Virus genome (UHGV): UHGV-0184235
DNA: 54,604 nt
Reading direction: 5' to 3' (one strand)
Source: a virus
Positions 9,615 to 44,584 of this stretch are shown in pieces. The translations under genes were made by a program, and so were the position numbers. Each line of letters begins with the position of its first letter. The stretch's first letter is position 1. The notes under the pieces were generated by a model. The model saw only the letters and a list, made by a program, of their open reading frames with translations, ran no database searches and was not told the origin of the DNA.

Positions 9615-9887
9615 ATGAAATTAGTAACTCTGACCACCTGGGCAGCGAAGATTTATCCCGACAATCCCCCGGCGCGAGTGACCCTCAGACGCTGGGCGAG
9701 GAACGGAAACATCTACCCGCCCCCCGAGCTTCATGGGCGTGAATACCGCGTTAACCCGGAAGCGTTTTATATCAAGCCCAACAAAGCGGGAAAAGAGCTG
9801 CAACAGCACCATCCCAACGGGCGAACTGGTAAAAAAAGTGCGTTGCTGGAGCAGTTAATAAATGAGTCAAAAAAGATACGACGCTAA
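9615..9887 (+). CDS. xis: excisionase (lambda Xis-like)
   Basis: MKLVTLTTWAAKIYPDNPPARVTLRRWARNGNIYPPPELHGREYRV aligns with lambda Xis (LTLQEW...RWVRE..IFPPP..DGREY). AAGAGG SD. It overlaps the int start. Confidence 0.7.
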   Translation: MKLVTLTTWAAKIYPDNPPARVTLRRWARNGNIYPPPELHGREYRVNPEAFYIKPNKAGKELQQHHPNGRTGKKSALLEQLINESKKIRR

Positions 9888-10941
9888 TCTACCCAAGAAC
9901 CTCACCTATCGTAAAAATGACAGAGCGTTTTACTGGCGTAATCCGCTGACTAAAAAAGAAATTGCGCTGGGGCAAATTTCCCGCAGGGATGCGGTCGCAC
10001 AGGCGATCGAGGCCAACAACTTCATCGCGCAGAATTACACCCCTGTTGCGCTGATTGAAAAACTTAAAGGTCTGGACTCGCTTACTGTCACAAAGTGGAT
10101 CGAGCGCTATGAGGTACTGTTACAGCGTCGTAATCTGTCGGTGAACACATACAAGATTCGTGGCAACCAGTTAGCGACTATACGGGACAAGATGGGCGGA
10201 ATGCTCCTGGCGGAAGTGACCACAAAGCATATTGCTACGTTTCTGGAAACATGGATTGAAGGAGGGAAAAATACTATGGCGGGAGCAATGCGATCTGTCT
10301 TATCAGATATGTTCAGGGAGGCGGTTGTTGAGGGGCATATAACACAGAATCCGGTTGAGCCAACCCGCGCCCCAAAAATCGAGGTTGCGCGTGATCGTCT
10401 GAGACTGGACGTGTATAGAAAAATTCGTACAGCAGCAGAGAAACTGCCGACATGGTTTCCTCTGGCTATGGATCTCGCGTTGATCACTGGTCAGCGTCGC
10501 GAAGATGTTTCCTGCATGCGATTCAGTAATATTATTGATGACCGTCTATATGTAAAACAGATTAAAACGGGGATGAAAATAGCGTTACCGTTGTCGCTCA
10601 GTCTCCCATCCGTCGGCCTGCGCCTCGGAACGGTGGTCGATCGCTGCCGACTTGTGAGCAGGACTGACTATCTGATCAGCGCCGGGGTCAGGAAGAACAG
10701 CCCGGACGGGAGTATTCACCCTGACAGCCTGACGAAAAAGTTTGTCGCTGCCAGGAAATTAACTGACATTGCATTCAGCGAAAACCCGCCGCCGTTTCAT
10801 GAAATCCGCAGCTTGTCCGGGCGACTGTACAAAGATGCCTACGGTGAAGATTTCGCCCAGAAACTGCTGGGGCATACATCAGAAAACACAACAAAAATGT
10901 ATCTCGATGAGCGTGATGAAAAGGCGTATATGATGCTCTGA
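9862..10941 (+). CDS. int: tyrosine integrase (lambda Int family, 359 aa)
   Basis: N-terminal arm-binding domain, core-binding region, and a C-terminal catalytic region with HEIRSL...LLGHTSENTTKMYLD. Confidence 0.9.
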   Translation: MSQKRYDANLPKNLTYRKNDRAFYWRNPLTKKEIALGQISRRDAVAQAIEANNFIAQNYTPVALIEKLKGLDSLTVTKWIERYEVLLQRRNLSVNTYKIRGNQLATIRDKMGGMLLAEVTTKHIATFLETWIEGGKNTMAGAMRSVLSDMFREAVVEGHITQNPVEPTRAPKIEVARDRLRLDVYRKIRTAAEKLPTWFPLAMDLALITGQRREDVSCMRFSNIIDDRLYVKQIKTGMKIALPLSLSLPSVGLRLGTVVDRCRLVSRTDYLISAGVRKNSPDGSIHPDSLTKKFVAARKLTDIAFSENPPPFHEIRSLSGRLYKDAYGEDFAQKLLGHTSENTTKMYLDERDEKAYMML

Positions 10942-11003
10942 TTTTCAGTTTAAAAAATGTTAAATCTAATTTTGTTGTGGTATAAGGGAAAAAGACCGGA
11001 TAC

Positions 11004-11036
11004 GGAAATTCGAGGAAATTTCGAGGAATTTCGAGG
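11004..11036. repeat. three tandem copies of about 11 bp (GGAAATTCGAG / GAAATTTCGAG / GAATTTCGAG), candidate Int arm-type or Xis/IHF binding sites of attP
   Basis: Direct repeats seen in the sequence 60 bp downstream of the int stop, inside an AT-rich noncoding stretch. Confidence 0.4.
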
Positions 11037-11382
11037 GAAGATGCATAATCCTTTGATTTTAAAGGAAAATAAAAAGAGACCGAATACGATTCCTGTTATC
11101 GCCAGCACACAAATAAAACCAATGAATTCAATTAGATAGACACCACGCAGCGCATCTTTTATGCCCAAAAAACATCTTTTCATGTGCTTTTATAATCAAA
11201 TACATGCCACTTTTTCCGTTTTTATTCGGTGATATTTCGGTACGACACTCCATCGAAAGGGTTATCGTTCCACATCGTTGGGGAGCGGTAACACTGTCCA
11301 TGCATAGCACTCTTTGCCAAGAACTGTGCAGATCTTTTTTGGTAAAGTGCGTGGCTAGGAAATTTTTATTATTAGTTTTTTC

Positions 11383-12171
11383 ATGGTAGTCGTAATGAAA
11401 ATAACACGTAAAGAACTACAATTAATGAAAGAAACCACTTCTGATGGTTGCATCATTTATTTGTCTGGACCATCATCGTTAGATACTCCATTGGAGCTAT
11501 TGCGCGCCAAAAGCATCATCAGCGTGAACGGTAGCACAGGCTACTTACTGGAAAACAATATTCCAGTATTTGCATATATTGTCAGTGATGGTTCATTTTA
11601 TGAAAAAAATAAATCACTATTTTTAAAATACTCATCTTATGCCAGATATACTTTTATTAGTAATGACGTTCTCAAACGTGCAAACACTTCAGAAAAAGAA
11701 CAACTACTCAATACATGTTTTGTGTTAAATGATATCTGCAAATCACGGGGTGGGCCGGGAAGGAAAATAAGATACACAATAAAATCGGCAATTAACAGAA
11801 GTGTTTTTATCAAGTGTTCTGCATCAAGGAAAGAAAAGACAATTGCATTTTCCACTGATGTATATCATGGACACTTTGGCAGTGCAACGGTTGCATTTAG
11901 CGCATTACAACTTGCAATATCACTAAAATTCAGAGAAGTGCTTTTTTCAGGTTTAGATCTTAGCGGGGAATGTAAAAGGTTTTATAGCGAAGGTCAACCG
12001 CAACCAACAACCTTACCCACAGACTTTAATTTCATATTGAAATCTTTTGATTTTCTTATGAAAAAATATCGCGGAAACATTTTCAACCTTTCCAGTAGAA
12101 CTGCTATACCCTATGAAGTAATCCCCTTTGCGAGTGCAGCGGAAATAATGAATCAAACTACACTGGTATAA
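11383..12171 (+). CDS. AT-rich moron protein (262 aa), a putative CstII/DUF115(Maf)-like nucleotide-sugar glycosyltransferase
   Basis: Visibly low GC. The motif CIIYLSGPSSLD...ISVNGSTGY resembles the CstII VIIAGNGPSL...VFRCNQFY motif, and a later FSGLDLSG resembles YLSGIDFY. The family assignment is from memory. Confidence 0.45.
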   Translation: MVVVMKITRKELQLMKETTSDGCIIYLSGPSSLDTPLELLRAKSIISVNGSTGYLLENNIPVFAYIVSDGSFYEKNKSLFLKYSSYARYTFISNDVLKRANTSEKEQLLNTCFVLNDICKSRGGPGRKIRYTIKSAINRSVFIKCSASRKEKTIAFSTDVYHGHFGSATVAFSALQLAISLKFREVLFSGLDLSGECKRFYSEGQPQPTTLPTDFNFILKSFDFLMKKYRGNIFNLSSRTAIPYEVIPFASAAEIMNQTTLV

Positions 12172-12564
12172 CATAAGCACCTTGCGATAGACGTGATAAA
12201 TGCATCTACCGCTCCCCTCCATAGTATTTTCCGCGAATTTGAATCCAGTGTTCTGATATTATTTTTCATAATAATATCAGTCAGTAATAGAAGTATTTAT
12301 TAGATACTAACAGCAACCAGTCGTTTTGCCTATTCGCCATGCGTTGGATATCGAGCGGCCGGAGAAACCACTGTATGCACTCCCATGCGGCATGGTTACT
12401 GCTCTATTAATTCTACTGATGAAAACCTTGCCAACTCGATTGGAGATTTCTAGTTATTGACGCAAACACAGAACATGCAATCACATACGCTTCTTTACAT
12501 TTGGTGGTTTTTATGAATACTACTAGATGATTATGCTAACACGATGAGATCCAACGGATGAAAT

Positions 12565-12714
12565 ATGAATATATTTGAACAAACTCCACCAAATTGCAGG
12601 CGTTATGGCCTAGCTGCATTTATTGGGTTAATCGCTGGTACCGTATCAGCATTTGTTAAATGGGGCGCTGAAGCACCTTTGCCCCTCCCCAACCAGACTT
12701 CCCTGAGTGCTTGA
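12565..12714 (+). pseudogene. 49-codon fragment resembling the N-terminus of inner-membrane protein YagU (DUF1440), likely a host-gene 5' segment at the attP core
   Basis: The translation [40 protein letters not shown] matches my recollection of the E. coli YagU start ([40 protein letters not shown]), then diverges and stops. Confidence 0.4.
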
Positions 12715-12877
12715 GCGCCTAGTAATTGACCGATATGATGTAAAATTTAGTCTCCACACAAGGTCAACCTTATCGTATCTACTCCGTATTATGTATGTCG
12801 ATCAAGTACCGCGTTAGTGCTACACTTGCACTCTTTCAGAATTCACTGATTTTTCACATGTTAAAGCTATCTATCTC

Positions 12878-13264
12878 ATGGACATAAAACTGTCTGCGGT
12901 CTACCAAAATCAGGCCATTAGATACTGCATTGTCGGCGGTATGAACACGGCAGTCACAGCTTGCGTGATACTTGCCCTTACAGCCTCAGGCTTCGGCTTG
13001 TATGTATCTAATTTTTCTGGCTATGTTGTTGGGATATTGTTCAGTTACGTCCTTAACACATATTTTACTTTCTCGTCAAAGCCATCATTCAGAAGGTTGG
13101 TTAAGTTCATTGTATGTTGTGCAGCCTGCTACGTCATCAATCTCATAGCCATGAAAACAACTATAGCATTTGGTTTTGAAAATAAATATTTAATCCAGCT
13201 GGCAGGGATGTTTTTCTATACAATCTCTGGTTTTTTAATTAATAAACTCTGGGTAATGAAATAA
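12878..13264 (+). CDS. gtrA: GtrA-family flippase (128 aa, 4 TM)
   Basis: Small polytopic membrane protein immediately upstream of gtrB, in a low-GC region. Confidence 0.7.
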   Translation: MDIKLSAVYQNQAIRYCIVGGMNTAVTACVILALTASGFGLYVSNFSGYVVGILFSYVLNTYFTFSSKPSFRRLVKFIVCCAACYVINLIAMKTTIAFGFENKYLIQLAGMFFYTISGFLINKLWVMK

Positions 13265-14214
13265 TGAAAGCGCCTGTTCTTTCCATTGTTGTGCCTTGCT
13301 ATAACGAGCAAGATGTTTTTAGCCTTTGTCTTAATGAGTTATCATCTCGTATGAGTGAAATGAAAGACAAAGGGAAAATAGACAGAGAAAGTCATATAGT
13401 CTTTGTTGATGATGGAAGCAAAGATAATACCTGGCGATTAATAGAAGAAGCATCAAGTGACAGTTGTCTGGTGAAAGGGGTAAAACTTTCACGAAATAAA
13501 GGCCATCAGACTGCATTGATGGCAGGGTTATCATCATGCACTGCATCTGACATTACTGTAAGTATTGATGCTGACTTGCAAGATGACACCGCTGTGATTG
13601 AAAAAATGGTTGACTCCTATCTCTCTGGTCACGACATAGTATACGGAGTAAGGAACGACAGAACCTCAGATAGTTTTTTTAAGAAGTTTACAGCAGAAGC
13701 ATTCTATAAGGTAATGACCAGGCTCGGTGTAAGTCAGGTTGAAAATCATGCTGATTTTAGGCTGTTAAGTCGAAGAGCGCTCAACTCCCTTTTACAGTAT
13801 AAAGAACAAAACCTATATATTCGGGGTCTTATCCCCCTGATCGGATATCCGAGCGATAAAGTGTACTATTCTCGTCATGAGCGAGCAGCCGGAGAATCAA
13901 AGTACCCGCTCAGAAAAATGCTGGCTCTTGCACTTGAAGGAATCACATCGTTTTCGGTAACGCCATTAAGGATCGTAACCGCTTTAGGTTTCATTATTTC
14001 TATACTTTCATCAATTGGAGTTATATATACCCTTGCTCAGTATTTTCTTGGACATACCGTTAGTGGATGGGCGTCGATGATTTTGGCTGTCCTGTTTATA
14101 GGGGGGGTTCAAATGCTTTGCCTTGGTGTAATCGGTGAATATATCGGTAAAATTTATATGGAATCTAAGAAAAGACCAAAATTTTTCATTGAACAGAAGA
14201 AAGGATTTAAGTAA
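13264..14214 (+). CDS. gtrB: bactoprenol glycosyltransferase GtrB (GT2, DPM1-like, with 2 C-terminal TM helices)
   Basis: SIVVPCYNE...VDDGSKDNT...DADLQDD signature with two C-terminal TM helices. Confidence 0.85.
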   Translation: MKAPVLSIVVPCYNEQDVFSLCLNELSSRMSEMKDKGKIDRESHIVFVDDGSKDNTWRLIEEASSDSCLVKGVKLSRNKGHQTALMAGLSSCTASDITVSIDADLQDDTAVIEKMVDSYLSGHDIVYGVRNDRTSDSFFKKFTAEAFYKVMTRLGVSQVENHADFRLLSRRALNSLLQYKEQNLYIRGLIPLIGYPSDKVYYSRHERAAGESKYPLRKMLALALEGITSFSVTPLRIVTALGFIISILSSIGVIYTLAQYFLGHTVSGWASMILAVLFIGGVQMLCLGVIGEYIGKIYMESKKRPKFFIEQKKGFK

Positions 14215-15987
14215 ATGAGATTAAAAAACTTGCAATGCAGCCTTCCTTTTGATCTTGTGTATTTCGCACCAATTTTTTGCGGGATATTTGTAGTCATATC
14301 TTCTAATAAAATATTCAATTTATCACTAACTGACATTATATTATATGTATCTTCGTTTGTAATAGCGATTAGCCTCTACGTCAGGATCGCAATCGGTGCG
14401 AGCACTAAATGCAAATTAGGATATAACTCATTGTTCGTATTTGCCATAAGCATATTGATCATAACTTACGCATTGAGTTTCTATGACTCAAATATGAATA
14501 AGTATTTTAGCTTCAATCCAATTTTTGATGTTGATAATTATAATATTTGGCACAAAGATAGCGCTTACAACCTAGCAATAATTCAAAGCATTATTAACTT
14601 TGGATATCCAAGCATAGGATTAGACGGGCATGCATTGACCACATACCACGTATTAAGTCATTATGTAGATGCATTACTTTTAAAAATATCAGGGTTGCCA
14701 ATATACGAATCCTATGGGTTCTCATCATATGTCAAAGCCGTTTTCCTTATTTGTTCGATATATGTATTTTGCTACCAATATTCTAAGAATATAATATCCT
14801 CATCGGTCGCATTCCTTTTTATTAGCCCTTTTATTGTCGCATCATGGCATGCAATTAACTCTCATGCTCTATGGCTACCAAGCTTCATTCTTGTTTTTTC
14901 TGCGAGATTTACATTTAACTTCCTATACCAGTCCGAGGTTCCAACCTTTAAAAAATATAACATTATTGCAATAATTTCTGCGCTGCTATGTCTGGGTAAA
15001 ATATCAACTGGGCTGGCGTATATCACCATTGTATTTTCAGTAGCCTTTATAAGAGACTTAAAAAGCCTGAAGTTCTATTTTTATGCCGTCACTCTATTAT
15101 TATTTATTGTTTTTTATCAAAAAGTAATAAACTATTCGTATGGCATCCCAGCGGTTTTGGAACTACAAGCACTATCACCAACAGTAATTTACCATCATTT
15201 ATTAAATACCGATATCCGCTACGAGAAATTCTTTATTCCTTTTATCGCCGCAATTATATCACTGAGAATTTGCATCAAATCAGAATTTCTTACAAGGTTG
15301 ATCTTTGGAGTTATTTGTTCTTTTTCCTCAATCTTTGTCATAACCCAAACATTCACCTCATTTAACTGGAGCGATAAATATTATTTCTTCCAGGGGCTTT
15401 ATTCAGTTACAGTTTTGCTTTTTTGCTCTTATATTCTAACATGGGCCAATGCATCGAAAGAAGAAAAAAAAATAAAACATCTCACGTCTTTTGCTCTTAT
15501 TTCACTTCTTTCATTCTTTGTATATCAACCTGTATATTCAATAGCAAGCATTAATGCAAAAAGCATTGTGAGTAAATTTGAATACGTTAAAATAAAATTA
15601 TTCAAACCACATAAAACAGACGTTAACGGGAGTATGTATTCTTTAAAGCAATACGTATATCAAATAAAAGAAGGGAGTCACCTGAACAATAGAGATATAG
15701 CGTTATTCATCCCAAAATCCGTTATTCTAAACCAGGTAATTAAAATAAACGATGGGAATAAAAACTTCCATACCATGAATATCTATGCTGCAACTGGCAT
15801 TCAAATAATAAATGGTTTAATAGGAAATGAGAGGGCCTATGGATTGATTAATTATGGAAAACAATCAGCCCTTAAGGAAAGCATTGATTATAGTTATGAA
15901 TGTTCAAGGTTAGGGGTTAAGGCGATAATCACAGTGGAAAATTACACAGAAAAAAAATATCTATATCACCTGTGTGACGGCCAATAA
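14215..15987 (+). CDS. serotype-specific O-antigen glycosyltransferase (GtrC-type polytopic membrane protein, 590 aa)
   Basis: Large, very hydrophobic, low-GC protein in the third position of a gtr operon. Confidence 0.65.
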   Translation: MRLKNLQCSLPFDLVYFAPIFCGIFVVISSNKIFNLSLTDIILYVSSFVIAISLYVRIAIGASTKCKLGYNSLFVFAISILIITYALSFYDSNMNKYFSFNPIFDVDNYNIWHKDSAYNLAIIQSIINFGYPSIGLDGHALTTYHVLSHYVDALLLKISGLPIYESYGFSSYVKAVFLICSIYVFCYQYSKNIISSSVAFLFISPFIVASWHAINSHALWLPSFILVFSARFTFNFLYQSEVPTFKKYNIIAIISALLCLGKISTGLAYITIVFSVAFIRDLKSLKFYFYAVTLLLFIVFYQKVINYSYGIPAVLELQALSPTVIYHHLLNTDIRYEKFFIPFIAAIISLRICIKSEFLTRLIFGVICSFSSIFVITQTFTSFNWSDKYYFFQGLYSVTVLLFCSYILTWANASKEEKKIKHLTSFALISLLSFFVYQPVYSIASINAKSIVSKFEYVKIKLFKPHKTDVNGSMYSLKQYVYQIKEGSHLNNRDIALFIPKSVILNQVIKINDGNKNFHTMNIYAATGIQIINGLIGNERAYGLINYGKQSALKESIDYSYECSRLGVKAIITVENYTEKKYLYHLCDGQ

Positions 15988-16011
15988 TGTCGATTGCTAC
16001 GCTTATATTTA

Positions 16012-29090: not shown

Positions 29091-29474
29091 TCACACCCTC
29101 CGCAACTGAATGGAATATGTTGCTTTCGCCGGATCGGTTCCTGCCGTAATGACTTTGTAGCGTTGCTGTTCGCCGGTAATCAGGTCTGGTGCAGTGATGA
29201 TGTGATCGACTTTCGGTTCGTCGGTAACTTCATTCGTCAGCGCTGTTAATTTCAGGTCGCCGTGCAGGATATTGACGCCATCAATGCGGTTGAGGCTGTA
29301 TTTCGACAGAACGCCACGCCCGGTGTAGGTCACTGTGGTTTCACCGCCCGTTTCCGTTACCGGGTCCCATCCGGTTTGGATGACGTAAGAGCCGGTGAAA
29401 TCGTTGACGGCATCCGCCAGCTTGGTATCAAAGGCCTTTGCGACCTTCGTCTGTAATTTTTCACGAATTCCCAT
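29091..29474 (-). CDS. head-tail joining or head closure protein (127 aa)
   Basis: Position in the connector cluster. Confidence 0.45.
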   Translation of the reverse strand: MGIREKLQTKVAKAFDTKLADAVNDFTGSYVIQTGWDPVTETGGETTVTYTGRGVLSKYSLNRIDGVNILHGDLKLTALTNEVTDEPKVDHIITAPDLITGEQQRYKVITAGTDPAKATYSIQLRRV

Positions 29475-29661
29475 GAATCAGCCTCAACCACTCAGCGATA
29501 ATCGCCCTGACCACCTGGTCCCTGTCAGCAATGTCATCTGGCGACATTTTCCCATCAGCGATCGCTCGCATAAGGGATACCGGAATGACATGCACATTGC
29601 CGTCAGAAGTCTGTAGGCAAACATGCGGCTTGCGCGGTTCAATGTTGACTACTTCGCCCAT
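29461..29661 (-). CDS. small hypothetical protein (66 aa)
   Basis: Clean ORF with coupled overlaps on both sides. Confidence 0.4.
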   Translation of the reverse strand: MGEVVNIEPRKPHVCLQTSDGNVHVIPVSLMRAIADGKMSPDDIADRDQVVRAIIAEWLRLIHGNS

Positions 29662-29662
29662 A

Positions 29663-30058
29663 TCAAGCCCTCACAAAGTACGTTTGAAAAGGACTCAGCC
29701 GCCACGGGCCCAGCAATGCCAGCGCCAGTTGAAGATCAGGGTCAAGAAGTGATGAACTGTCTACCGATAATTCAGCATACGATTCAGATACACTCACTCC
29801 ATCCGCTGTAACTGACTCACTCGTAACGACGCCAGAACTGGTTTTCTGTTGGTAAAGGTTTCCAACAGCCGCGACGGAAGCTGCGTATGCGCCAGCCTGT
29901 TTTACATCATCAGGAATATTATTGAGGTCGATATCCTGAAGATTGAGGCTTGTCATCCAGGCATTAGCCATCAGAACCGCTTTTGCTTTTTTATCTGGCT
30001 CAGTCCAGTTTTCACCAAGCAACTGGTCAACATCAGCGACGGTTATATAGGTTGTCAT
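29663..30058 (-). CDS. head-tail connector or adaptor (gp6-like)
   Basis: MTTYITVADVDQLLG... is the typical adaptor N-terminus. Confidence 0.5.
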   Translation of the reverse strand: MTTYITVADVDQLLGENWTEPDKKAKAVLMANAWMTSLNLQDIDLNNIPDDVKQAGAYAASVAAVGNLYQQKTSSGVVTSESVTADGVSVSESYAELSVDSSSLLDPDLQLALALLGPWRLSPFQTYFVRA

Positions 30059-30636
30059 TGAGATAATCTCCACGCCCGGCGGCGCTCTGTGCGCGGTGTT
30101 CTGTCTGGATGGCGCTCTACCGGTTCACCGTCGGCATGATCCACCAGTGAGTAACACGGATAGACTACTGAACCACCCCAGGCATCACCCACGGCATAAT
30201 CGGCTGGCTTACTGCTGTCCCATCGAGATAACACGCGCTCAATATGCTGGGGCGGGACGCTGTAGCAAACGCCATGTATCAATCGCGGCAACGTGATGAA
30301 GTCTGCCCGAGTCTTATCAGCAACTATCAGCCGTTCGGCTATCTGCATCTGGTACTGAGGTGGCCGCCCGGTTCCCAGGTAAAAACTCACCAGGGAATCA
30401 GGGAAGCGGTTAAGCCAGTCGAATACCTTTTCACGAAACCCATCAACGGGTAATGCATCCTCTTCGATGATAATCACTCTGTCTGACTGCTCAACTGCCC
30501 AACGAAGAGCGCGAAGATGATTTGCATTTGCACCAGCGCTATGCTCATCCATGAAGACAATGTCAGCATCAAGCTGACTCGCTAACTCATCAGCTATGAT
30601 GCGGCGAGAGTGGTGAGCCACGATGGCGATCAACAT
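30055..30636 (-). CDS. hypothetical protein (193 aa), possibly GT-A-like
   Basis: The beta-alpha pattern IAIVAH...DADIVFMDEH...RVIIIEEDALP resembles a DxD/EED nucleotide-sugar transferase core, but the signal is weak. Confidence 0.45.
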   Translation of the reverse strand: MLIAIVAHHSRRIIADELASQLDADIVFMDEHSAGANANHLRALRWAVEQSDRVIIIEEDALPVDGFREKVFDWLNRFPDSLVSFYLGTGRPPQYQMQIAERLIVADKTRADFITLPRLIHGVCYSVPPQHIERVLSRWDSSKPADYAVGDAWGGSVVYPCYSLVDHADGEPVERHPDRTPRTERRRAWRLSQ

Positions 30637-31214
30637 CTGTCAGCCTCATTGTGTGAGAAGTGTTCAAGCCTGGCGGCTACAGCTGCGTCCCTGGCTTCTT
30701 CAAGTGACATGAATGTTTTCCTTAGAACAAACTTGCCATTGAGCTTAACTTGCGCAAGCCAGCGCCTGTTGCCGCGATTTAGATAAGTAACCCCGAGTAC
30801 TCCAGTTTTACTATTTTTCTTAGCGCCGCCGAGGTTCTGATTGTTCTCACTTCTGCTGGCCAACCTGAGGTGATTGATATTGCAGCAGAGCCTGTTGCGA
30901 CAAATATGGTCGACATCCATTCCATCAGGAACAGGACCATTCACGGATTCCCAAACAAAGCGATGCACACGTAATGCCTTACCGCCAGTTCGTATGCTGC
31001 CGTAACCTGTTTTTAACCTTGCTCCAGTCCATACCTGGCATTCGCCTTCAATCTTTGTCCTGGCCTTAATTGCTTCCTGTGGAGAGCTATAAACTGTGTT
31101 CCGCACAACCAATGGGTCACCGTATTTCCGCCATCTGAAATAGTGCTTTCCACACATCCTTCTTTTTTCAGAACGATTATCGCAGTCATTCACGCAACAT
31201 TTTTTAGTCATGTG
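30630..31214 (-). CDS. HNH homing endonuclease with a C-terminal AP2 DNA-binding domain
   Basis: HNH motif DVDHICRNRLCCNINHL...SENNQN plus an AP2-like segment GVTYLNRGNRRWLAQVKLNGK. Confidence 0.7.
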   Translation of the reverse strand, partial: HMTKKCCVNDCDNRSEKRRMCGKHYFRWRKYGDPLVVRNTVYSSPQEAIKARTKIEGECQVWTGARLKTGYGSIRTGGKALRVHRFVWESVNGPVPDGMDVDHICRNRLCCNINHLRLASRSENNQNLGGAKKNSKTGVLGVTYLNRGNRRWLAQVKLNGKFVLRKTFMSLEEARDAAVAARLEHFSHNEADRC

Positions 31215-31230
31215 CATATCTCGCAACCAA

Positions 31231-31254
31231 TAAAAAAGCCGCGCGGTGGCGGCT
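31231..31254 (-). terminator. intrinsic terminator between the glycosyltransferase block and the HNH gene
   Basis: AGCCGC-GCGGTG-GCGGCT hairpin followed by a U-run on the minus strand. Confidence 0.4.
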
Positions 31255-31328
31255 ACTGTCTGCATATCAGGATTTTCAACGAATTAAAGTGCGGATAGGC
31301 TGAAGGCTCATTAATACAAGGAGTAAAT

Positions 31329-31505
31329 ATGTCTGGACTTATCAATCCTCAAAATGCCCCAGAAGAATCAGCTTATGCATTACTGATTGAAATGATTAGA
31401 GCCCAAAGAGTTCCTGTTTATTCAGGAGGAGATATATCTAATCTCCTCTCAATGTATGACCAGGCTGTTCAGCACTTCCAAAAGAGTAGCGATGACGATA
31501 ATTAA
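31329..31505 (+). CDS. small antisense-oriented protein (58 aa)
   Basis: AAGGAG SD 6 nt before ATG. The translation is MSGLINPQNAPEESAYALLIEMIRAQRVPVYSGGDISNLLSMYDQAVQHFQKSSDDDN. It is absent from the ORF track because it is under 60 aa. Confidence 0.4.
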   Translation: MSGLINPQNAPEESAYALLIEMIRAQRVPVYSGGDISNLLSMYDQAVQHFQKSSDDDN

Positions 31506-31596
31506 AGATTTTCTTACTTTTTGTTAAACGTTTCACGGATTGAATTTGCCATTAATCAGCACCTTCAATCCGTGTCTCGCTTTGAACTTCTCTCCA

Positions 31597-33057
31597 CTAT
31601 TTATGGCGCCACCAGGCGTACTCCTTACCGGTACCTTCAGACTTGAACACTGTGTGGATGCGCGGGCCGGTTACTATCCGATCCCCCAAAGACTTCGCCA
31701 CGATGCCGAATGCCAGCATGTCACCCACTGCGGCGCCAGCCTGCTCTTTCTTCCAGAATCGGTAGCTCTCAATCCGGTAGTAAAGGCGGATGATGCCGTG
31801 AGCGAACGCCATTACATCTGCGCGCGTACCGCCCAGCAGCCCGGCGTTAAGCATCACATCGTTGCGGTGCTGTTCGATAAACTCCTGATAGATGCGTTCC
31901 GGGTGATTCTGTTTCGCCCATGCGTCAGCGTAGGTTTTCGGCTCCGAACCAACGTAGAGTTTTCCGGCCTCCATCTCTTCCCACGGCGCGCAAAGCATTT
32001 CGACATCAGTACCATCGGTACACCAGGCGAACCGGTATTCAGGATGATCGCGCAGGTGCTGCCAGATATGCAGCCAGCGCCGGAAGTAGACGTTCATTGC
32101 GACATCTGGAACTGTCACCAGTTGAGCACCATCGGGAGCGGAGGTTAGCTGGTCTGCCAGCACTACGGCATCGGCACCCCGGATTGATTTAGCCCAGGTG
32201 GTCAGCGCGGCCGGGTCAGGCTGCATTCTGCTACCGCGCTGCGGGTCCGGTTGGCTCGTCAGTAATGTTGTGATCACAACGTCGCGCTGGCGCCGGTATT
32301 CGACATAGCCGGTATACCCCTTATCGCGACGCTCGTTGTGGATTTTTACATTACGTTCCACCAGCGCTTTCCGGTCTGCCGTTGGTACTGAACGGTCTAC
32401 GGCTTCATGCTCATCGAGCGAATGAATCAACTTTTCGGAACCAGTTACATCGGCATAAGCCCAAGTAGTCAGGCCAGCGTTATGGATGCGCAGGGCAAGG
32501 TCACTGTGTTCGTACATGCCGCGCCCGTATACCGGATCAAATCCGCCTACCTTCTCGATCGCACTGCGATGGTAATAAAGCATCACGCCGCGCTGTCCGG
32601 TATACGCCACATGCTTATCGTCGCTATAAAGCACAGCGAGATCGTTAAGTTTTCGCGGTCCGGCAAGGTCGAGGAACTGGTAAGCCAGGTGCGCCTCGGG
32701 TGATTCGATATACGGAAGATGCCAGCCATCGGCAATCGGCCATGCGTCGTCGTCCCACAGGAAAAGGTGTTCGCACCCGGTATCCATCAGCGCTGTAAGA
32801 CTGGCGTTCTTCGAAGCAACAATGCCTTTTGAATTATCGTGCCGGATTAAATTACACCAACCCGGAGCTGTTGCTGGCGGATTTGAACCATCATCAATGA
32901 CGAACACGACCGCACCGGGAGGTAAATATTTTCGATGTTGCTCAAGTGATCTTGCGAGGACATCCGGCCTGTTATGAGTGGTTATCGCGATTCCGATTTT
33001 ATTATGGGAAACGCTATCGGCGCGGACATAAGGAACCCCACCAACAATGACATCCAT
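31597..33057 (-). CDS. two-domain glycosyltransferase (486 aa), with an N-terminal GT2-like GT-A domain and an unassigned C-terminal domain
   Basis: IGIAITTHNRPDVL...VFVIDDGSN...LFLWDDDAWP...VGGFDPVYGRGMYEHSDLALRI. It is coupled to the upstream 67-aa gene. Confidence 0.75.
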   Translation of the reverse strand: MDVIVGGVPYVRADSVSHNKIGIAITTHNRPDVLARSLEQHRKYLPPGAVVFVIDDGSNPPATAPGWCNLIRHDNSKGIVASKNASLTALMDTGCEHLFLWDDDAWPIADGWHLPYIESPEAHLAYQFLDLAGPRKLNDLAVLYSDDKHVAYTGQRGVMLYYHRSAIEKVGGFDPVYGRGMYEHSDLALRIHNAGLTTWAYADVTGSEKLIHSLDEHEAVDRSVPTADRKALVERNVKIHNERRDKGYTGYVEYRRQRDVVITTLLTSQPDPQRGSRMQPDPAALTTWAKSIRGADAVVLADQLTSAPDGAQLVTVPDVAMNVYFRRWLHIWQHLRDHPEYRFAWCTDGTDVEMLCAPWEEMEAGKLYVGSEPKTYADAWAKQNHPERIYQEFIEQHRNDVMLNAGLLGGTRADVMAFAHGIIRLYYRIESYRFWKKEQAGAAVGDMLAFGIVAKSLGDRIVTGPRIHTVFKSEGTGKEYAWWRHK

Positions 33058-33060
33058 TGC

Positions 33061-33264
33061 TTATACCTTCTCGTCAAGGTCAATGGTGATTTGATTTTCG
33101 GCGTGGTCTTTATTGAGGTTAAAAACCACTGTGACCGTTGGCAAGGAAGTTATTTCGGTGTTAATGCTGGTCGAGGCCTGTCCATCCAGTAGTTGACCAT
33201 CCACGGCAATACCGTAACCAAGGAAATGGTCTCCACGGTATAACTTCGCTATCTGGTATTTCAT
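33061..33264 (-). CDS. small hypothetical protein (67 aa) coupled to the glycosyltransferase
   Basis: AAAGGA SD. Its stop is 3 nt from the glycosyltransferase start. Confidence 0.5.
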   Translation of the reverse strand: MKYQIAKLYRGDHFLGYGIAVDGQLLDGQASTSINTEITSLPTVTVVFNLNKDHAENQITIDLDEKV

Positions 33265-33390
33265 CTGCGTTTCCTTTTAAAAAGTGAGCCTGTCCACCAG
33301 AACGCAGCCCGAGAGAGGTCGCCACCTGTACGGCGTTCTCAGGCTCACTTTCTGAAAGACTCTCGTTTGTCAGGCGCGGTGGACGCGCAA

Positions 33391-33417: not shown

Positions 33418-34365
33418 TTAGCTGCCGCCGCCGAGCTGAATCAAAACCCCAGCAGTGGATTTGTTGCTGGTGAAGTGTTTCTTCCAGTTCCCCTGCGTGC
33501 CAATGGCGGTAAGGTCCGGGTTTTCGCCTTTGGTGGTATCCCAGCTGTACCCCAGCAGTTCGACGTTCACCGTACCTTCAGCGCGATAGCCGATCGCGAG
33601 GTTTTCCTGGTCGTTGATGTCATAGGAGCGGAACCCCGGCGCCTGAGACTCAGTTACTGATACAGCACCGGCCACCAGCCCCAGAATTGCATCAACAGGC
33701 ATCGTATCGGTCACCAGAACCGGTTTACCCAGCGTACCTGGCTGGCCGCCGTACACGACCACGCCCGCTTCTTCGTAGATTTTGTTGTCGATAGCCTGAT
33801 CAACAATATCGAAGTAGGTAGTGGAGTGCATAACGAACAGGGAAACGCGGTTGAATTTATCGCCGTAGGTGCGCAGACCGCGAGTCAGCGTTTTCTTGCC
33901 ATCAGTGGCAATATCCGCAGTCACGACCATATCAGCGTTGGCACCGATAGCGGCAATCAGCCCCTGAAGCGCGTACTTGATGTAGCCCTCCAGTGTCGCG
34001 TCAGCCACATCGACACCAATCACCTCAGAAAACTCGCTCACATCACGCCCGCGACGTTTGAACGCTTCCTCCGTAGTTTCGTACGGGCCATATTTCCATG
34101 GTGCTTTTACGCTGACGGACTCGCCAGCGCCGATTTTTTTACCCGTTACCGGGTCAGTAGAGTTAACGTCACGCGCTTCGATAGAACCGCCGACTTTATA
34201 GAAAGCGCGCTTACGGAAATCACCTTCGATCAGTTCGTTATCGAGAATGATTGCACCATTAGACGCCTGGTTAAAAACATCCAGATTATCCTGACGGCGC
34301 TCCAGAAACGCAGTTTGCGCGAGATCGTCATAAATAATCAGATCAGTATTAACGGTCGTAGCCAT
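33418..34365 (-). CDS. major capsid protein (315 aa)
   Basis: Position after the scaffold gene. AAGGAA SD. It is followed by a strong terminator. Confidence 0.8.
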   Translation of the reverse strand: MATTVNTDLIIYDDLAQTAFLERRQDNLDVFNQASNGAIILDNELIEGDFRKRAFYKVGGSIEARDVNSTDPVTGKKIGAGESVSVKAPWKYGPYETTEEAFKRRGRDVSEFSEVIGVDVADATLEGYIKYALQGLIAAIGANADMVVTADIATDGKKTLTRGLRTYGDKFNRVSLFVMHSTTYFDIVDQAIDNKIYEEAGVVVYGGQPGTLGKPVLVTDTMPVDAILGLVAGAVSVTESQAPGFRSYDINDQENLAIGYRAEGTVNVELLGYSWDTTKGENPDLTAIGTQGNWKKHFTSNKSTAGVLIQLGGGS

Positions 34366-35163: not shown

Positions 35164-35277
35164 ATTGTCCCCTTGGGATATTCAGTGTGGGCCTGGCCCA
35201 ATAAAAAAGGCCGCCCGGAGGCAGCCTGTTGTGAATTTCAGATAATAAAAAAGGCCGCGCTATGGCGACCTCTTTAT

Positions 35278-35754
35278 TTAGATATTTTCAAGCATATCTT
35301 TTGCATCTTTAATGGCTTTATCCATTCTCTGCAAAGAAGCCTTTGGCTCCGCAATGCTTCGCACTGTGCAAATCTCTTTAATGAGTCCCCTTGCGATTAC
35401 TAACTCTTCATGCAGGCTTGCAATAAGGTCTCTTTGTTTTTGTGAATCCATATCAACCTGGCCGACTTTAGTGTATCCGCCATCAACGATAACAGTCATC
35501 GTTTCATGCTGACTGAATTTTTTAAATAGATCTTTGCATGGACCAACATGAGCACCGACGCGTACTACCGTATCGGATGGTTCTATGTATCCAATGCCAT
35601 TGCGCTCAACAACATCGCGCAGCGCGTTCAATAATTCAGCATTTGTTAGGTCGTTCGGACTAACATAGCGATAAAACTGATCGGGTCCGTCACCTGAATC
35701 ATGAATAATCAATTCATTACCGGCGTAATGTAAATTGTTTTCTGGAGCAGCCAT
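35278..35754 (-). CDS. hypothetical protein (158 aa), an AT-rich moron in the head module
   Basis: GAGG SD before ATG 35754. A hairpin plus T-run lies after its stop. Confidence 0.45.
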   Translation of the reverse strand: MAAPENNLHYAGNELIIHDSGDGPDQFYRYVSPNDLTNAELLNALRDVVERNGIGYIEPSDTVVRVGAHVGPCKDLFKKFSQHETMTVIVDGGYTKVGQVDMDSQKQRDLIASLHEELVIARGLIKEICTVRSIAEPKASLQRMDKAIKDAKDMLENI

Positions 35755-35845
35755 CGTCAACCTCGTCTCGTTGCTCGTCAGGTTATTAGTGGCAGGCGGT
35801 GACGATGCCGCTTTTCGGGAGCTACCCTAGCCACTGATTATTTTA

Positions 35846-36097
35846 TCACAACCCGACTGGCTCGTAGGTTTTATCGAAAATGTCCGGCTTGCAGGGGTAA
35901 TGTTCACCATTCACGCCGCGAATAATGTAATCGCCAGCGCTTGCTGTCATGGTGCCTTCCAGTGTCTTAATTAGCAGATCATCCCCCATAACATGGCAGT
36001 CCCGACTGCCTGAGTTACAGAAATCGTAAATCTCCTGCGTGTTTGTTCCGGTCCACTGAACAGCATCAATAACAACCGGCTTTTTGCGGAATTTCAT
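35846..36097 (-). CDS. hypothetical protein (83 aa)
   Basis: Good SD (AGGAGAACATAATG). Confidence 0.5.
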
Positions 36098-36249
36098 TAT
36101 GTTCTCCTGTTAAATACCTGCGTCTTTTAAGCCAGCACGGTATCCGCGCTGAAATGTAGAGAGTTGCTTCTCTTGCGCGGTGTGTGCATGCCCGCTTTTT
36201 ACCGTTAGTATTTCCCAGCACAATTTCAGCCGGTTAATTAATGTTAGTT

Positions 36250-41422: not shown

Positions 41423-41986
41423 TTAATGCGTGGTCACCAGATTGTTATTCGACTCTCTCACCGAGTCGTAAATACGCTCACACGTCATTCCTGCTGTGTA
41501 GCGTTCGTCAGCGATTCCAGCATAACGTTTAGCTTCTGCTGCAATATCTCCGAGCATGTCGGCGAGCATTCCGGCATCGGCTCCGGCTGTTTTGCTTCTG
41601 ACGGCAGCGGCAAGATCTGCGGTGTGCTTTGCGGCGTCCAGGCGGGCGGCAAGCTTTGTTGCTTCGGTGCGCAACTGGTTAACAGTGGCAGACAAGCCAG
41701 CAGCAGTGGCAGCAGCTTTTGCCGCTTGTTGTTGTGCATCTTTCACAGCCTCTTCACGGGCAACGGCTCGCCCTTGCTCAATCATGCGGGCGGCGGTCTG
41801 CGCGTTCGCGGTCTGTGACGACTCCGCGCTGTCGCGCTCTGCCCACTTCTTTTCCCAGCCCCGATTGCTCCAGACATTTCCGGTGATAAACGCGCCAGCC
41901 ACCAGAAGTAAAACGACAACGGGTTTCCACCAGGCTTTTATGCCAGCAATTAACGGCACCGGGTTCACTGGTCTATCCCCCAGCAT
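41423..41986 (-). CDS. i-spanin (Rz-like)
   Basis: N-terminal TM helix and a periplasmic Ala/Gln-rich coiled coil. It lies downstream of the endolysin. Confidence 0.7.
41485..41739 (-). CDS. o-spanin (Rz1-like lipoprotein) embedded in the +1 frame of Rz
   Basis: Lipobox LLTSC after a signal peptide, with a Pro-rich mature part. Its reading frame differs from that of Rz. Confidence 0.6.
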
Positions 41987-42495
41987 GCCAGCGCGCTTTC
42001 CTGGTCGCGACGGGAAACCTGCCCAAAGCAGTTATTGGAACGGATACGGCAATCTTTTCCGCCGTCGAATATCCAGCGTCTAATTTCAGCACAGGCCCCT
42101 TTGCGGTCTCCTGCATTCAGCTTACGAAAAAATCCAGATGGCAGGCATTTACCAGAGCCGATGTTGTACGGGCAGAACGACGCGATCCCCGCTTTCTGTG
42201 GCTCTGTCAGCGGCACTTTGATGTTTCGGTTTACCCACGCCAGCGCCTTATTGCGCTCGATGGCATTAACCTGGTCGCATTTCTGCTGTGTCAGCTTCAT
42301 ACCCTGCACCACCGGTTTACCATCAACCATTGTGGCGCCACGGCAAATCGTCCAGATCCCGCCACCATCTTTGTACGCTGTCAGACTGTTACCCTCTTTC
42401 TCATTCAGGAACTGATCGAGAATAACCGACGCTGGCGCACCGGCGAGAACCAGTGCCAGAACGGCGGCACTAAGTTTTGCTCTCCACCCCATCAT
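41965..42495 (-). CDS. SAR endolysin (T4-lysozyme-like GH24 with a signal-anchor-release N-terminus)
   Basis: N-terminal [19 protein letters not shown] hydrophobic segment followed by E...D...T catalytic spacing ([20 protein letters not shown]). Confidence 0.8.
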
Positions 42496-42797
42496 TCACC
42501 AGCCTTAGTAAGCGCGTCGGCAACAACACTTACAGCCGCCGGGCGTTCAGCAATGGGTTTATCACTGATGCCATCCAGGTAATCGCGGATCATGGCTGTG
42601 CGCTTCTCGTCTTCTTTACGTTTACGACGGGCATCAATTCGGCCATTTACGTAAGAGATCAGAGAAATAAGCAGGCCGACAGCACCAAAGAACATGTAGA
42701 CCATATCCTGTGTGGTAAAACCCAATGCTGCCGCGAGGGTTCCAACCCACGCGAAAAACTGCGTGAAAATATTCCCTGAGTGATCGTTCATTCTCAT
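42492..42797 (-). CDS. holin with an M-R-M dual start
   Basis: Three TM helices. Starts at codons 1 and 3 mirror lambda S107/S105. Confidence 0.7.
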   Translation of the reverse strand: MRMNDHSGNIFTQFFAWVGTLAAALGFTTQDMVYMFFGAVGLLISLISYVNGRIDARRKRKEDEKRTAMIRDYLDGISDKPIAERPAAVSVVADALTKAGE

Positions 42798-43654: not shown

Positions 43655-44452
43655 TCATCGGGTCACGTTTCCCAGAACCTTTTCTGCATATGATTCCTCA
43701 ATATGGCAATGCTCCACCAGCCGATCGAAAAACTGTTTATAGTTGTACCGCCATACCATTTCCGTTATCCCCAGCGCTTTAAAAATCTCGGTATCTTTCA
43801 GGCGTGGGTAACCTCTTCCCTTGCATCTCGGGCATTTTTTATAAACCGGCACGCCCTGCAACTCTGATTTTTTCTTATCGAGAATTTCTCCGCGCCCCCG
43901 GCAACGGCATTCGTTTTTCACATGGCCTTTACCATCACATGTTTTACACACGACGCGCACTTGCTCACGTACTGATTTCCACACCTCCCAGTCAGAAGGA
44001 GAAATGCCTTTCGTATCTTTTACCCATTTTGGTGGCTTACCATCCGGGTAAGTAACCTTGTTCGTGAAAACCTCAGCATCAATAAATTTTGCGCCATGAC
44101 AGCTACCGCACGCCACCAGGCTTGCAGCACTGAGGGAATAATCGCGGAAAACATACCGAGCCAGAATACCGAGAAATTTTGAGCGTTCACTTTCTTCCAT
44201 TTTCCGCAGCGATCCGTGCCGTTCTGCGCGCTGTTCTGCCAGTTTCTTGATGTAGGCAATAATATTGTCTGAAGATAAAACCCCGGCTTTTGCCAGATAC
44301 AATTCAATACCCACCGCTGCTTTTGCGGAAAGTAGCCCGAGGGATGCCATTACGTCAGTAATAGTCAACGTATCTGCTGAAATACCGCATGGAACAGCGC
44401 CGGGCATCATGGATTTAGGCGAAAAATATTTTGGTAAGGACTCAAGCTTCAT
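43655..44452 (-). CDS. late antiterminator Q (phage-21/82-type Q with a zinc finger)
   Basis: CKTCDGKGHVKNECRCRGRGE...CPRCKGRGY cysteine clusters. The start is taken at MKLESLPKY. Confidence 0.75.
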   Translation of the reverse strand: MKLESLPKYFSPKSMMPGAVPCGISADTLTITDVMASLGLLSAKAAVGIELYLAKAGVLSSDNIIAYIKKLAEQRAERHGSLRKMEESERSKFLGILARYVFRDYSLSAASLVACGSCHGAKFIDAEVFTNKVTYPDGKPPKWVKDTKGISPSDWEVWKSVREQVRVVCKTCDGKGHVKNECRCRGRGEILDKKKSELQGVPVYKKCPRCKGRGYPRLKDTEIFKALGITEMVWRYNYKQFFDRLVEHCHIEESYAEKVLGNVTR

Positions 44453-44584
44453 TTTGATGCTCCCGTTTTGCTTCAATGCGGATGTAATTGCGAAGGATGC
44501 GGTATGCCACCAGCACCGATCCCCGATACCGGAAAAGGTTAAGGCGCTGCCAGCGCTGGCGAAGAGACTCAATAACCTCGGGTT

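Follow-up and report, generated by a model that had tools for sequence, protein, structure and literature searches.

The virions of the mycobacteriophages Che8, Corndog and Myrna are glycosylated, and secondary sources name capsid and tail-tube proteins as the targets (PMC12363180, PMC11600133, PMC11256854, PMC11652166). According to a review, Che8 gp110 and Corndog gp38 are glycosyltransferases (GTs) essential for the O-glycosylation of capsid and tail tube that Freeman et al. 2023 showed (PMC12363180), and another paper states that the GTs of cluster O phages modify capsid and tail tube (PMC11600133). Here we describe a related pair of GT genes, GT486 and GT193, in the virus genome UHGV-0184235, a stretch of 54,604 nucleotides (nt) that was analysed as a whole and is referred to as the window. 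The window is a lambdoid prophage, with its structural genes on the minus strand, and the pair is inserted in the head operon between the major capsid gene and a head-tail adaptor gene. We consider it probable that this insert is a mobile virion-glycosylation cassette, which would O-glycosylate the C-terminus of the capsid protein late in infection. In mycobacteriophages, Freeman et al. [quoted passage not shown] Glycosylation of mycobacteriophage virions lowers antibody binding and neutralisation.

Read along the minus strand, the interval consists of the capsid gene, a terminator, a 67-amino-acid (aa) open reading frame (ORF), GT486, an antisense 58-aa ORF, an HNH gene, GT193 and the adaptor gene Ad1. 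The capsid gene (33418-34365, minus strand) encodes a 315-aa protein of the SPP1 gp13-like type (Pfam Gp13-like, E 4e-105). GT486 (31597-33057, minus strand) encodes a two-domain glycosyltransferase of PHROG 1579, GT193 (30055-30636, minus strand) a predicted GT-A/GT25-like glycosyltransferase of PHROG 854, and with Ad1 (29663-30058, minus strand; phrog_493, E 5e-43) the head module resumes. An earlier note on this DNA had listed these ORFs from the letters alone, and all of them were found on the minus strand where it had placed them, with the 58-aa one in antisense.

The likeness to the systems of Che8 (gp108-110) and of Corndog and Catdawg (an O-methyltransferase with three GTs) extends to sequence, position and predicted substrate. 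GT193 is homologous to Che8 gp110 and Catdawg gp36, and in both cases the enzymes are soluble and phage-encoded. [quoted passage not shown] In the Corndog-like phage Catdawg, a methyltransferase gene and three GT genes lie between the portal and protease genes and thus within the head operon, which gives a precedent for the placement of GTs inside such an operon. Several differences should also be noted. A methyltransferase domain is present in Che8 gp108, and Catdawg gp33 likewise carries a methyltransferase annotation, whereas no ORF of the window insert matched a methyltransferase; moreover, the window host is a Gram-negative enterobacterium, only the capsid is tagged, and glycosylation is here a prediction. 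Che8 gp108 and gp109 were also considered as homologues of GT486, with no homology found.

A still closer arrangement is present in the cluster F mycobacteriophage Doomphist, as well as in PMC and Ramsey. Doomphist gp106 and gp108 are the same pair in unchanged order, separated by a small ORF, and the Doomphist cassette, which lies at the right genome end beside the terminase genes, is likewise free of a methyltransferase. Doomphist differs from the window in that its host belongs to another phylum and its virion proteins to other families, while in the window an HNH gene and an antisense ORF interrupt the cassette, which follows the capsid gene. In the literature searched, we found neither a functional or O-glycosylation study of the corresponding GTs of HK542-type enterobacterial phages nor a report of virion glycosylation demonstrated outside mycobacteriophages. 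The comparison supports a predicted mycobacteriophage-type system in a host group for which no earlier report was found. If this prediction is true, no earlier case of virion glycosylation would be known from phages of Gram-negative hosts, and the phenomenon would come to include gut phages, phages that infect major pathogens, and genetically tractable coliphages (HK542, ECP1 and mEp390).

The C-terminal serine tag of capsid and tail-tube proteins

The window capsid ends ...LIQLGGGS, and the tag predicted to accept the glycan corresponds to its four final codons (33421-33432). The six frames of the window hold 241 ORFs with 60 aa or more, and the capsid is the only one with a GS ending. In Che8 the capsid ends ...NKTGS and the tail tube ...YSDGS, the endings of the two Doomphist proteins are the same as those of Che8, and the Catdawg proteins end ...PLVGS and ...IKGDS, respectively. 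All three Gp13-like capsids that end GGGS are followed immediately downstream by both GT genes, an arrangement also carried by the loci L049 and L329, whose capsids are 91% identical to that of the window. The 77 Gp13-like capsids that end ...GE or ...GK all come from loci without GT193, and 76 of them have no GT within 10 kb. The exception is L091 (2383-4208), in which GT486 lies upstream of TerS, an antisense 79-aa ORF stands in place of the second GT, and the capsid has no Ser tag (...LGSAVGE). With GT486 kept and GT193 and the tag both missing, this single case fits GT193 as the tag-requiring enzyme.

The association is not confined to one capsid family. Capsids of phrog_10 (about 403 aa) end in Ser in 47 of 48 loci with GTs and in 2 of 12 without them (p 9e-9, a value that is descriptive only, as the compared loci are related and independence is overstated), and ten of those 12 GT-less capsids end ...GA. 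Across 74 GT-bearing loci, GS is the commonest C-terminal dipeptide, being found in 119 of 1676 coding-strand ORFs (7.1%); as controls, the opposite strand gave 3 of 1190 and the GT-less loci gave 3 of 1765. Major head proteins from three PHROG/Pfam families account for 62 of these 119 ORFs and major tail proteins for 41, while Ad1 adaptors make up 13 and other proteins three. When species-representative genomes were considered, every one of the 34 capsids identified in GT loci ended in Ser (25 GS, 7 TS, 1 NS and 1 KS). Where a locus has no GS ending, its capsid ends ...QTS and its tail tube ...ATS or ...PTS. A strict GS motif was dropped, because some GT-bearing phages have ...TS, ...NS or ...DS; these variants indicate that the tag consists of a small residue followed by a C-terminal Ser. 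A tagged tail tube is present in most of the other GT-bearing enterobacterial phages. If the reading is true, a very short acceptor tag is thereby defined, and its two residues could be used for glycosylating phage particles at will, offering a simple route to engineered, less immunogenic therapeutic phages.

Two other kinds of ending were observed. The Ad1 adaptor of phrog_40 (108-119 aa) ends ...PEEGS in L268 (17887-18213) and in 12 other GT-bearing loci with HK97-like heads, and may be a third tagged virion protein in those 13 loci; the Ad1 of the window ends ...YFVRA. In addition, a 66-aa ORF between the Ad1 and Hc1 genes of the window (29461-29661, minus strand; phrog_30574) ends ...HGNS, which resembles the rarer tag variants.

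These endings bear on an alternative in which the GTs act on a different protein, be it one of the host, for takeover or anti-defence, or a minor virion protein, and the Ser tag of the capsid is coincidental or otherwise used. The GS-ending adaptors and the 66-aa ORF would suit this alternative, as would the persistence of the tag in some GT-less phages and the fact that the GT substrate is here only predicted. We nevertheless regard it as unlikely, because the tagged classes are exactly the two that are glycosylated in mycobacteriophages and because the association holds across several capsid and tail-tube families and two bacterial phyla.

The two glycosyltransferases and their predicted substrate

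The 193-aa protein had been described in the earlier note as GT-A-like, and it does have a Rossmann-like alpha/beta/alpha fold, in which an acidic motif follows the fourth strand. PHROG 854 is labelled 'glucosyltransferase'. A Pfam search with GT193 itself gave no match and a PDB sequence search with its profile gave nothing useful, but its homologues Che8 gp110, Doomphist gp108 and Catdawg gp36 exceed the Pfam GT25 (PF01755) threshold. GT193 is 33% identical to Che8 gp110 across 195 aa (E 3e-29) and 33% identical to Doomphist gp108, and its alignment with Doomphist gp108 and Catdawg gp36 covers the proteins in full length and contains 33 invariant columns. By tblastn against 50,697 phage records, GT193 matched 727 records, of which 666 (about 92%) have mycobacterial hosts (clusters F, C and O); the remainder are mostly from Gordonia (29) and enterobacterial hosts. 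GT193 is predicted from these homologies to be the initiating protein O-glycosyltransferase.

The 486-aa protein consists of two domains, as had been proposed, namely a putative GT2-like core with acidic motifs and a second domain without any profile or fold match. The N-terminal domain is predicted to be GT-A/GT2-like, with DDGS at residues 55-58 and DDD at 102-104; the C-terminal domain (about residues 256-486) has conserved DGTD (348-351) and NAGxxGG (404-410) motifs and belongs to a family of 437 clusters at 50% identity, whose members are fused or stand alone (210-240 aa). These two motifs, together with a beta-alpha-beta pattern, only suggest that the C-terminal domain is a nucleotide-sugar transferase. 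Full-length tblastn matches of 44-46% identity link GT486 to GTs of cluster F mycobacteriophages, and the 46% identity to Doomphist gp106 is collinear over both domains. The DxD motifs of the catalytic type are invariant from enterobacterial through mycobacterial phages. A PDB sequence search with the full GT486 profile gave nothing useful. GT486 is predicted to extend the glycan. If these assignments are true, two widespread PHROG families that are now filed generically as 'moron / glucosyltransferase' would receive a corrected annotation.

A remodelling of host envelope glycans (lipopolysaccharide (LPS) core, O-antigen, enterobacterial common antigen (ECA) or capsule), for superinfection exclusion or for reduced sticking to debris at lysis, had been left open beside the modification of a virion protein. 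The GT25 and GT2 families are mainly known from LPS and polysaccharide synthesis, both GTs fall in the PHROG class 'moron, auxiliary metabolic gene', and the prophage also invests in O-antigen conversion through a gtrABC-like module (12878-15987, plus strand), which contains a GtrB homologue (phrog_841) and ORFs in the GtrA and GtrC positions. Both systems include phage-encoded GTs with a GT2-type catalytic domain, a predicted one in the case of GT486. However, GtrABC proteins are membrane proteins that act on undecaprenyl-phosphate and periplasmic O-antigen and are expressed in the lysogen, whereas the cassette GTs are soluble and late. Neither GT486 nor GT193 has a transmembrane (TM)-like stretch, unlike GtrB, nor a match to Gtr profiles, and both are unrelated to the gtrABC genes of the window, as the earlier note had anticipated in keeping the two modules apart. 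Furthermore, the cassette GTs lie in a Q-dependent late operon and are translationally coupled to structural genes, whereas known conversion genes are lysogen-expressed; their homologues in Che8 and Corndog act on virion proteins (PMC12363180, PMC11600133); and the occurrence of the Ser tag on distinct capsid and tail-tube families together with the GTs would be left unexplained. Thus the evidence favours a virion protein over host glycans, and we judge a role in the envelope decidedly improbable.

Glycosylation of phage DNA before packaging, a base hypermodification that would evade restriction, was also considered. Late expression beside packaging genes would suit such a role, DNA glycosyltransferases are common in phages, and a weak Pfam match to TET-associated glycosyltransferase was obtained (E 0.09). 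This match is far under the threshold, however, and the cassette and its flanks encode no synthesis of hydroxymethyl-pyrimidine or another acceptor base. As the cassette moves as a two-gene unit among otherwise canonical lambdoid phages, and as the covariation with a protein tag would again have no explanation, DNA is an extremely unlikely substrate. Capsid glycosylation through GTs of the virus itself is known in the chlorovirus PBCV-1, a eukaryotic virus with atypical N-linked glycans, whose A64R protein (PDB 2p6w) resembles the cassette GTs in the generic GT-A fold only.

We propose that capsid glycosylation could proceed as follows. Late transcription antiterminated by Q would pass the capsid-proximal terminator, with the soluble GTs made at a lower level than the capsid protein. 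GT193 would then add the first sugar to the C-terminal Ser of the capsid (...GGGS) and the two domains of GT486 would add further sugars, so that the head surface becomes covered with short O-glycans. Such a coat might benefit the phage by shielding it or by altering its surface adhesion. In the Gp13-like capsid family the glycan tag would replace an Ig-like domain, and the HNH and antisense 58-aa genes would be unrelated selfish passengers between the GT genes.

Several observations weigh against this proposal. When ten unrelated phages were surveyed, none gave glycoprotein bands (PMC12894461), and glycosylation in enterobacterial phages is so far a prediction. The C-terminal domain of GT486 matches no described fold or family: ten stand-alone relatives gave no Pfam match, a 50-sequence profile gave no PDB match, and hhalign did not link the domain to the GT193 family. 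The AlphaFold 2 (AF2) model of GT486 is poor (pLDDT 47), having been built from a shallow alignment of sequences 74-96% identical to the query. The major tail protein of the window ends ...ITVTEP after a Big_2 domain, as in a GT-less relative, so at most the capsid is the target here; the earlier suggestion that a capsid or tail protein is modified thus finds support for the capsid, from homology and the Gly-Ser tag, and none for the tail tube. Two GT-bearing loci retain a tail tube with an Ig domain. HK97 has no GTs, yet its capsid ends SSGS, and two of the 12 GT-less phrog_10 capsids end GS; these tagged capsids indicate that the tag can outlive the enzymes. The GGGS codons of the window adjoin the insertion and could have hitch-hiked with the cassette, although in other phages the GTs lie 6-9 kb from the 3' ends of the capsid and tail-tube genes, and hitch-hiking cannot explain the tag there. 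Finally, the relatedness of the compared loci, mentioned above, reduces the weight of the counts.

Ig-like domains in relatives lacking the cassette

The head module of the window is common to the Klebsiella phage ST974-OXA48phi18.2 and 76 IMG/VR relatives, whose capsids are 93-97% identical. None of these 77 has a GT at the capsid-adaptor position. The earlier note had expected such relatives to run from the capsid gene straight into the connector genes, and its call for a synteny comparison was borne out in that the GTs are missing from the site; direct adjacency was not found, however, because the interval, which is 322 nt long in most of the GT-less relatives, encodes an Ig-like domain (Big_1, Pfam E 1.6e-16) followed by a terminator. 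The Big_1 domain is located at 6700-6975 in L004 (minus strand as shown), at the same site in most GT-less relatives (L096-L167), and at 11008-11235 in L091. It lies in the -1 frame directly after the capsid stop codon, and this frame is open across the stop. The capsid may be extended into the domain by a frameshift, or the domain may be an ORF of its own that starts from a GTG located 11 nt after GGAG; no canonical slippery heptamer was seen for the Big_1 frame. Ig-like domains on phage virions are reportedly often appended through a programmed frameshift (Fraser et al. 2006).

The terminator that had been noted after the capsid gene is a hairpin at 33412-33397 on the minus strand (AGGGGC-TTCG-GCCCCT, then T6), just 3' of the capsid stop codon. 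An equivalent hairpin precedes the adaptor gene in the GT-less locus L004, and therefore the terminator is part of the head module and not of the insertion. By this comparison, the GT insert has displaced an Ig-like capsid appendage. Because an Ig-like domain is attached at this point in the relatives, the C-terminus of the capsid must face outward.

A second exchange of the same kind is seen in tail tubes of the HK97 type. In GT-less phages (HK97 and L199) the protein has 234 aa with a C-terminal Ig domain, whereas in GT-bearing phages the same tube domain is shortened to 147 aa and ends ...ESGS or ...DPGS. This repeated reciprocal swap between an Ig-like domain and a Ser tag, once on a capsid and once on a tail tube, suggests related surface roles. 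The Ig-like domains of phage capsids and tails thus occupy the same location as the Ser tag and GT insert of GT-bearing phages, although the former display a protein domain and the product of the latter would be a glycan, and their equivalence is deduced from the reciprocal replacement only. If this is true, a glycan coat appears as an alternative to Ig-like surface domains.

Distribution, passengers and surroundings of the cassette

The GT pair is also present in HK542, ECP1, mEp390, ENT39118, FSL SP-016, AsXd-1 and 80 IMG/VR contigs, with GT486 being 76-89% identical; for the named enterobacterial phages, the identities to the window are 76-81% for GT486 and 56-78% for GT193. In these named phages the genes (HK542 gp54/55, ECP1 gp22/23 and so on) are annotated as 'glycosyltransferase' and 'glucosyltransferase' (PHROG 1579 and 854). 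HNH genes are associated with the pair in the named phages as they are in the window, but the cassette there lies between the lysis genes and HNH-TerS, and the capsids are HK97-type or protease-fused. In a collection of one genome per species, both GT genes were found in 43 of 49 loci, and the genera that carry GT loci include Enterobacter, Citrobacter, Kosakonia, Pantoea, Erwinia, Rahnella, Sodalis, Leminorella and others. The usual site is flanked by the lysis genes and HNH-TerS-TerL. In a minority GT486 immediately follows the capsid gene, as in the window (L006, L008, L010, L049 and L329), with more distant post-capsid versions in Sodalis, Rahnella, Leminorella and Superficieibacter. On this comparison, the two GTs appear to form one conserved mobile cassette in temperate phages of Enterobacterales. 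We also lean, if only slightly, towards the broader proposal that temperate phages of Enterobacterales (those of E. coli, Citrobacter, Enterobacter, Klebsiella, Salmonella, Pantoea and others) bear O-glycans on the head and in most cases also on the tail, added by means of a portable two-gene, three-domain GT cassette and a C-terminal Gly/Thr-Ser acceptor, and that this coat is interchangeable with Ig-like domains.

Relatives of the cassette genes were observed further afield. GT486 relatives of 75-77% identity lie on contigs labelled Pseudomonas lundensis (L336) and Martelella alba (L362), and relatives of 35-45% occur in Flavobacterium (L367) and in a Rhizobium metagenome-assembled genome (MAG; L373); a nearby capsid-sized ORF ends GS in L336, L362 and L373. 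These relatives outside Enterobacterales may reflect horizontal transfer or contamination. Among Klebsiella jumbo phages of about 300 kb, vB_kp_MJ359 (PQ182779) carries a 56% relative of GT486 and KpLz-2_45 (NC_061418) a 50% relative of GT193.

The gap between the GT genes is a hot spot for passengers, which are HNH genes of two kinds, the antisense 58-aa ORF or a 76-aa ORF. The window gene (30630-31217, minus strand) encodes an HNH homing endonuclease of about 195 aa (Pfam HNH_3, E 7e-20; PADLOC homing endonuclease, E 1.5e-14). The label AP2-HNH that it had been given thus stands for the HNH part, whereas the AP2 match (E 0.036) is under the Pfam threshold. The ORF as listed (211 aa) takes in a second terminator-like hairpin (31254-31237, minus strand; AGCCGC...GCGGCT, then T6), which lies upstream of the HNH start, and the real start is probably at 31217 or 31211. 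AsXd-1 and many IMG/VR loci have an HNH gene of 96-97% protein identity in the same place, whereas other loci lack it.

The antisense 58-aa ORF (31329-31505, plus strand; phrog_27767) has AGGAG 5 nt ahead of its ATG, the Shine-Dalgarno sequence that had been remarked on. ORFs of 97-100% identity lie antisense between the GT genes in five other loci (L006, L010, L031, L036 and L041), whether an HNH gene is present or not, and the 58-aa ORF behaves as a separate small mobile unit; a consensus scan gave no promoter for it. The 67-aa ORF (33061-33264, minus strand; phrog_10235) is closely linked to GT486, as had been suggested, with 3 nt between its stop codon and the GT486 start codon, and it also occurs upstream of GT486 in some other loci, such as L010, L018 and L025. 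The small ORFs of these cassettes (the 67-aa and 58-aa ORFs, ECP1 gp25, Doomphist gp107, Che8 gp107 and gp111, and the 76-aa ORF of FSL SP-016) have no detectable relation to each other, and therefore none is a conserved third component. Neither the GTs nor the small ORFs were matched in NCBIfam or PADLOC. At 31534-31574, within the space that separates the converging stop codons of GT486 and the 58-aa ORF, there is a perfect 11-bp inverted repeat, CACGGATTGAA ... TTCAATCCGTG, with a 19-nt loop and no T-run on either side.

This abundance of passengers raises the question of whether the cassette itself is selfish cargo that is spread by homing endonucleases, with inactive or decaying GTs that have no function for the phage. 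HNH genes and small inserts repeatedly flank or split the cassette, and L091 has lost the second GT. On the other hand, both GT ORFs are intact and the exact GT486 protein is present in hundreds of assemblies; the DxD motifs are invariant and the pair is kept in the 43 of 49 loci mentioned above, over many genera. In addition, overlapping start and stop codons join the cassette to neighbouring structural genes: ATGTTGA holds the GT193 start and the HNH stop, and ATGA holds the GT193 stop and the adaptor start. A functionless cassette would also leave the covariation of tag and GTs unexplained and is very unlikely.

The same genes, including the antisense 58-aa ORF, were called by independent gene callers in two public assemblies, and the closest named proteins come from Citrobacter koseri. 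The sequence of the capsid end and terminator had no exact match among species-representative genomes. Upstream of the lysis and structural genes lies the gene of a Q-like antiterminator (43655-44572, minus strand), followed by the holin, endolysin and spanin genes (41423-42797, minus strand). The minus-strand order then continues with TerS, TerL, portal, MuF-like, scaffold, capsid, connectors, tail tube, tape measure and tail fibres. The integrase gene (9862-10941, plus strand) is adjoined by a low-GC block (32-41% versus about 52%) at 11000-16000, which contains the GtrB homologue; the ORF in the GtrC position encodes 590 aa and has no PHROG match. The head operon has a second insertion, at 35208-36240, between the MuF-like and scaffold genes, which are about 85 nt apart in L004. 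It contains an 83-aa ORF (phrog_419) and a 160-aa ORF whose C-terminal part belongs to phrog_12238, neither being matched in NCBIfam or PADLOC, together with terminator-like hairpins at 35275-35248 and 35227-35208.

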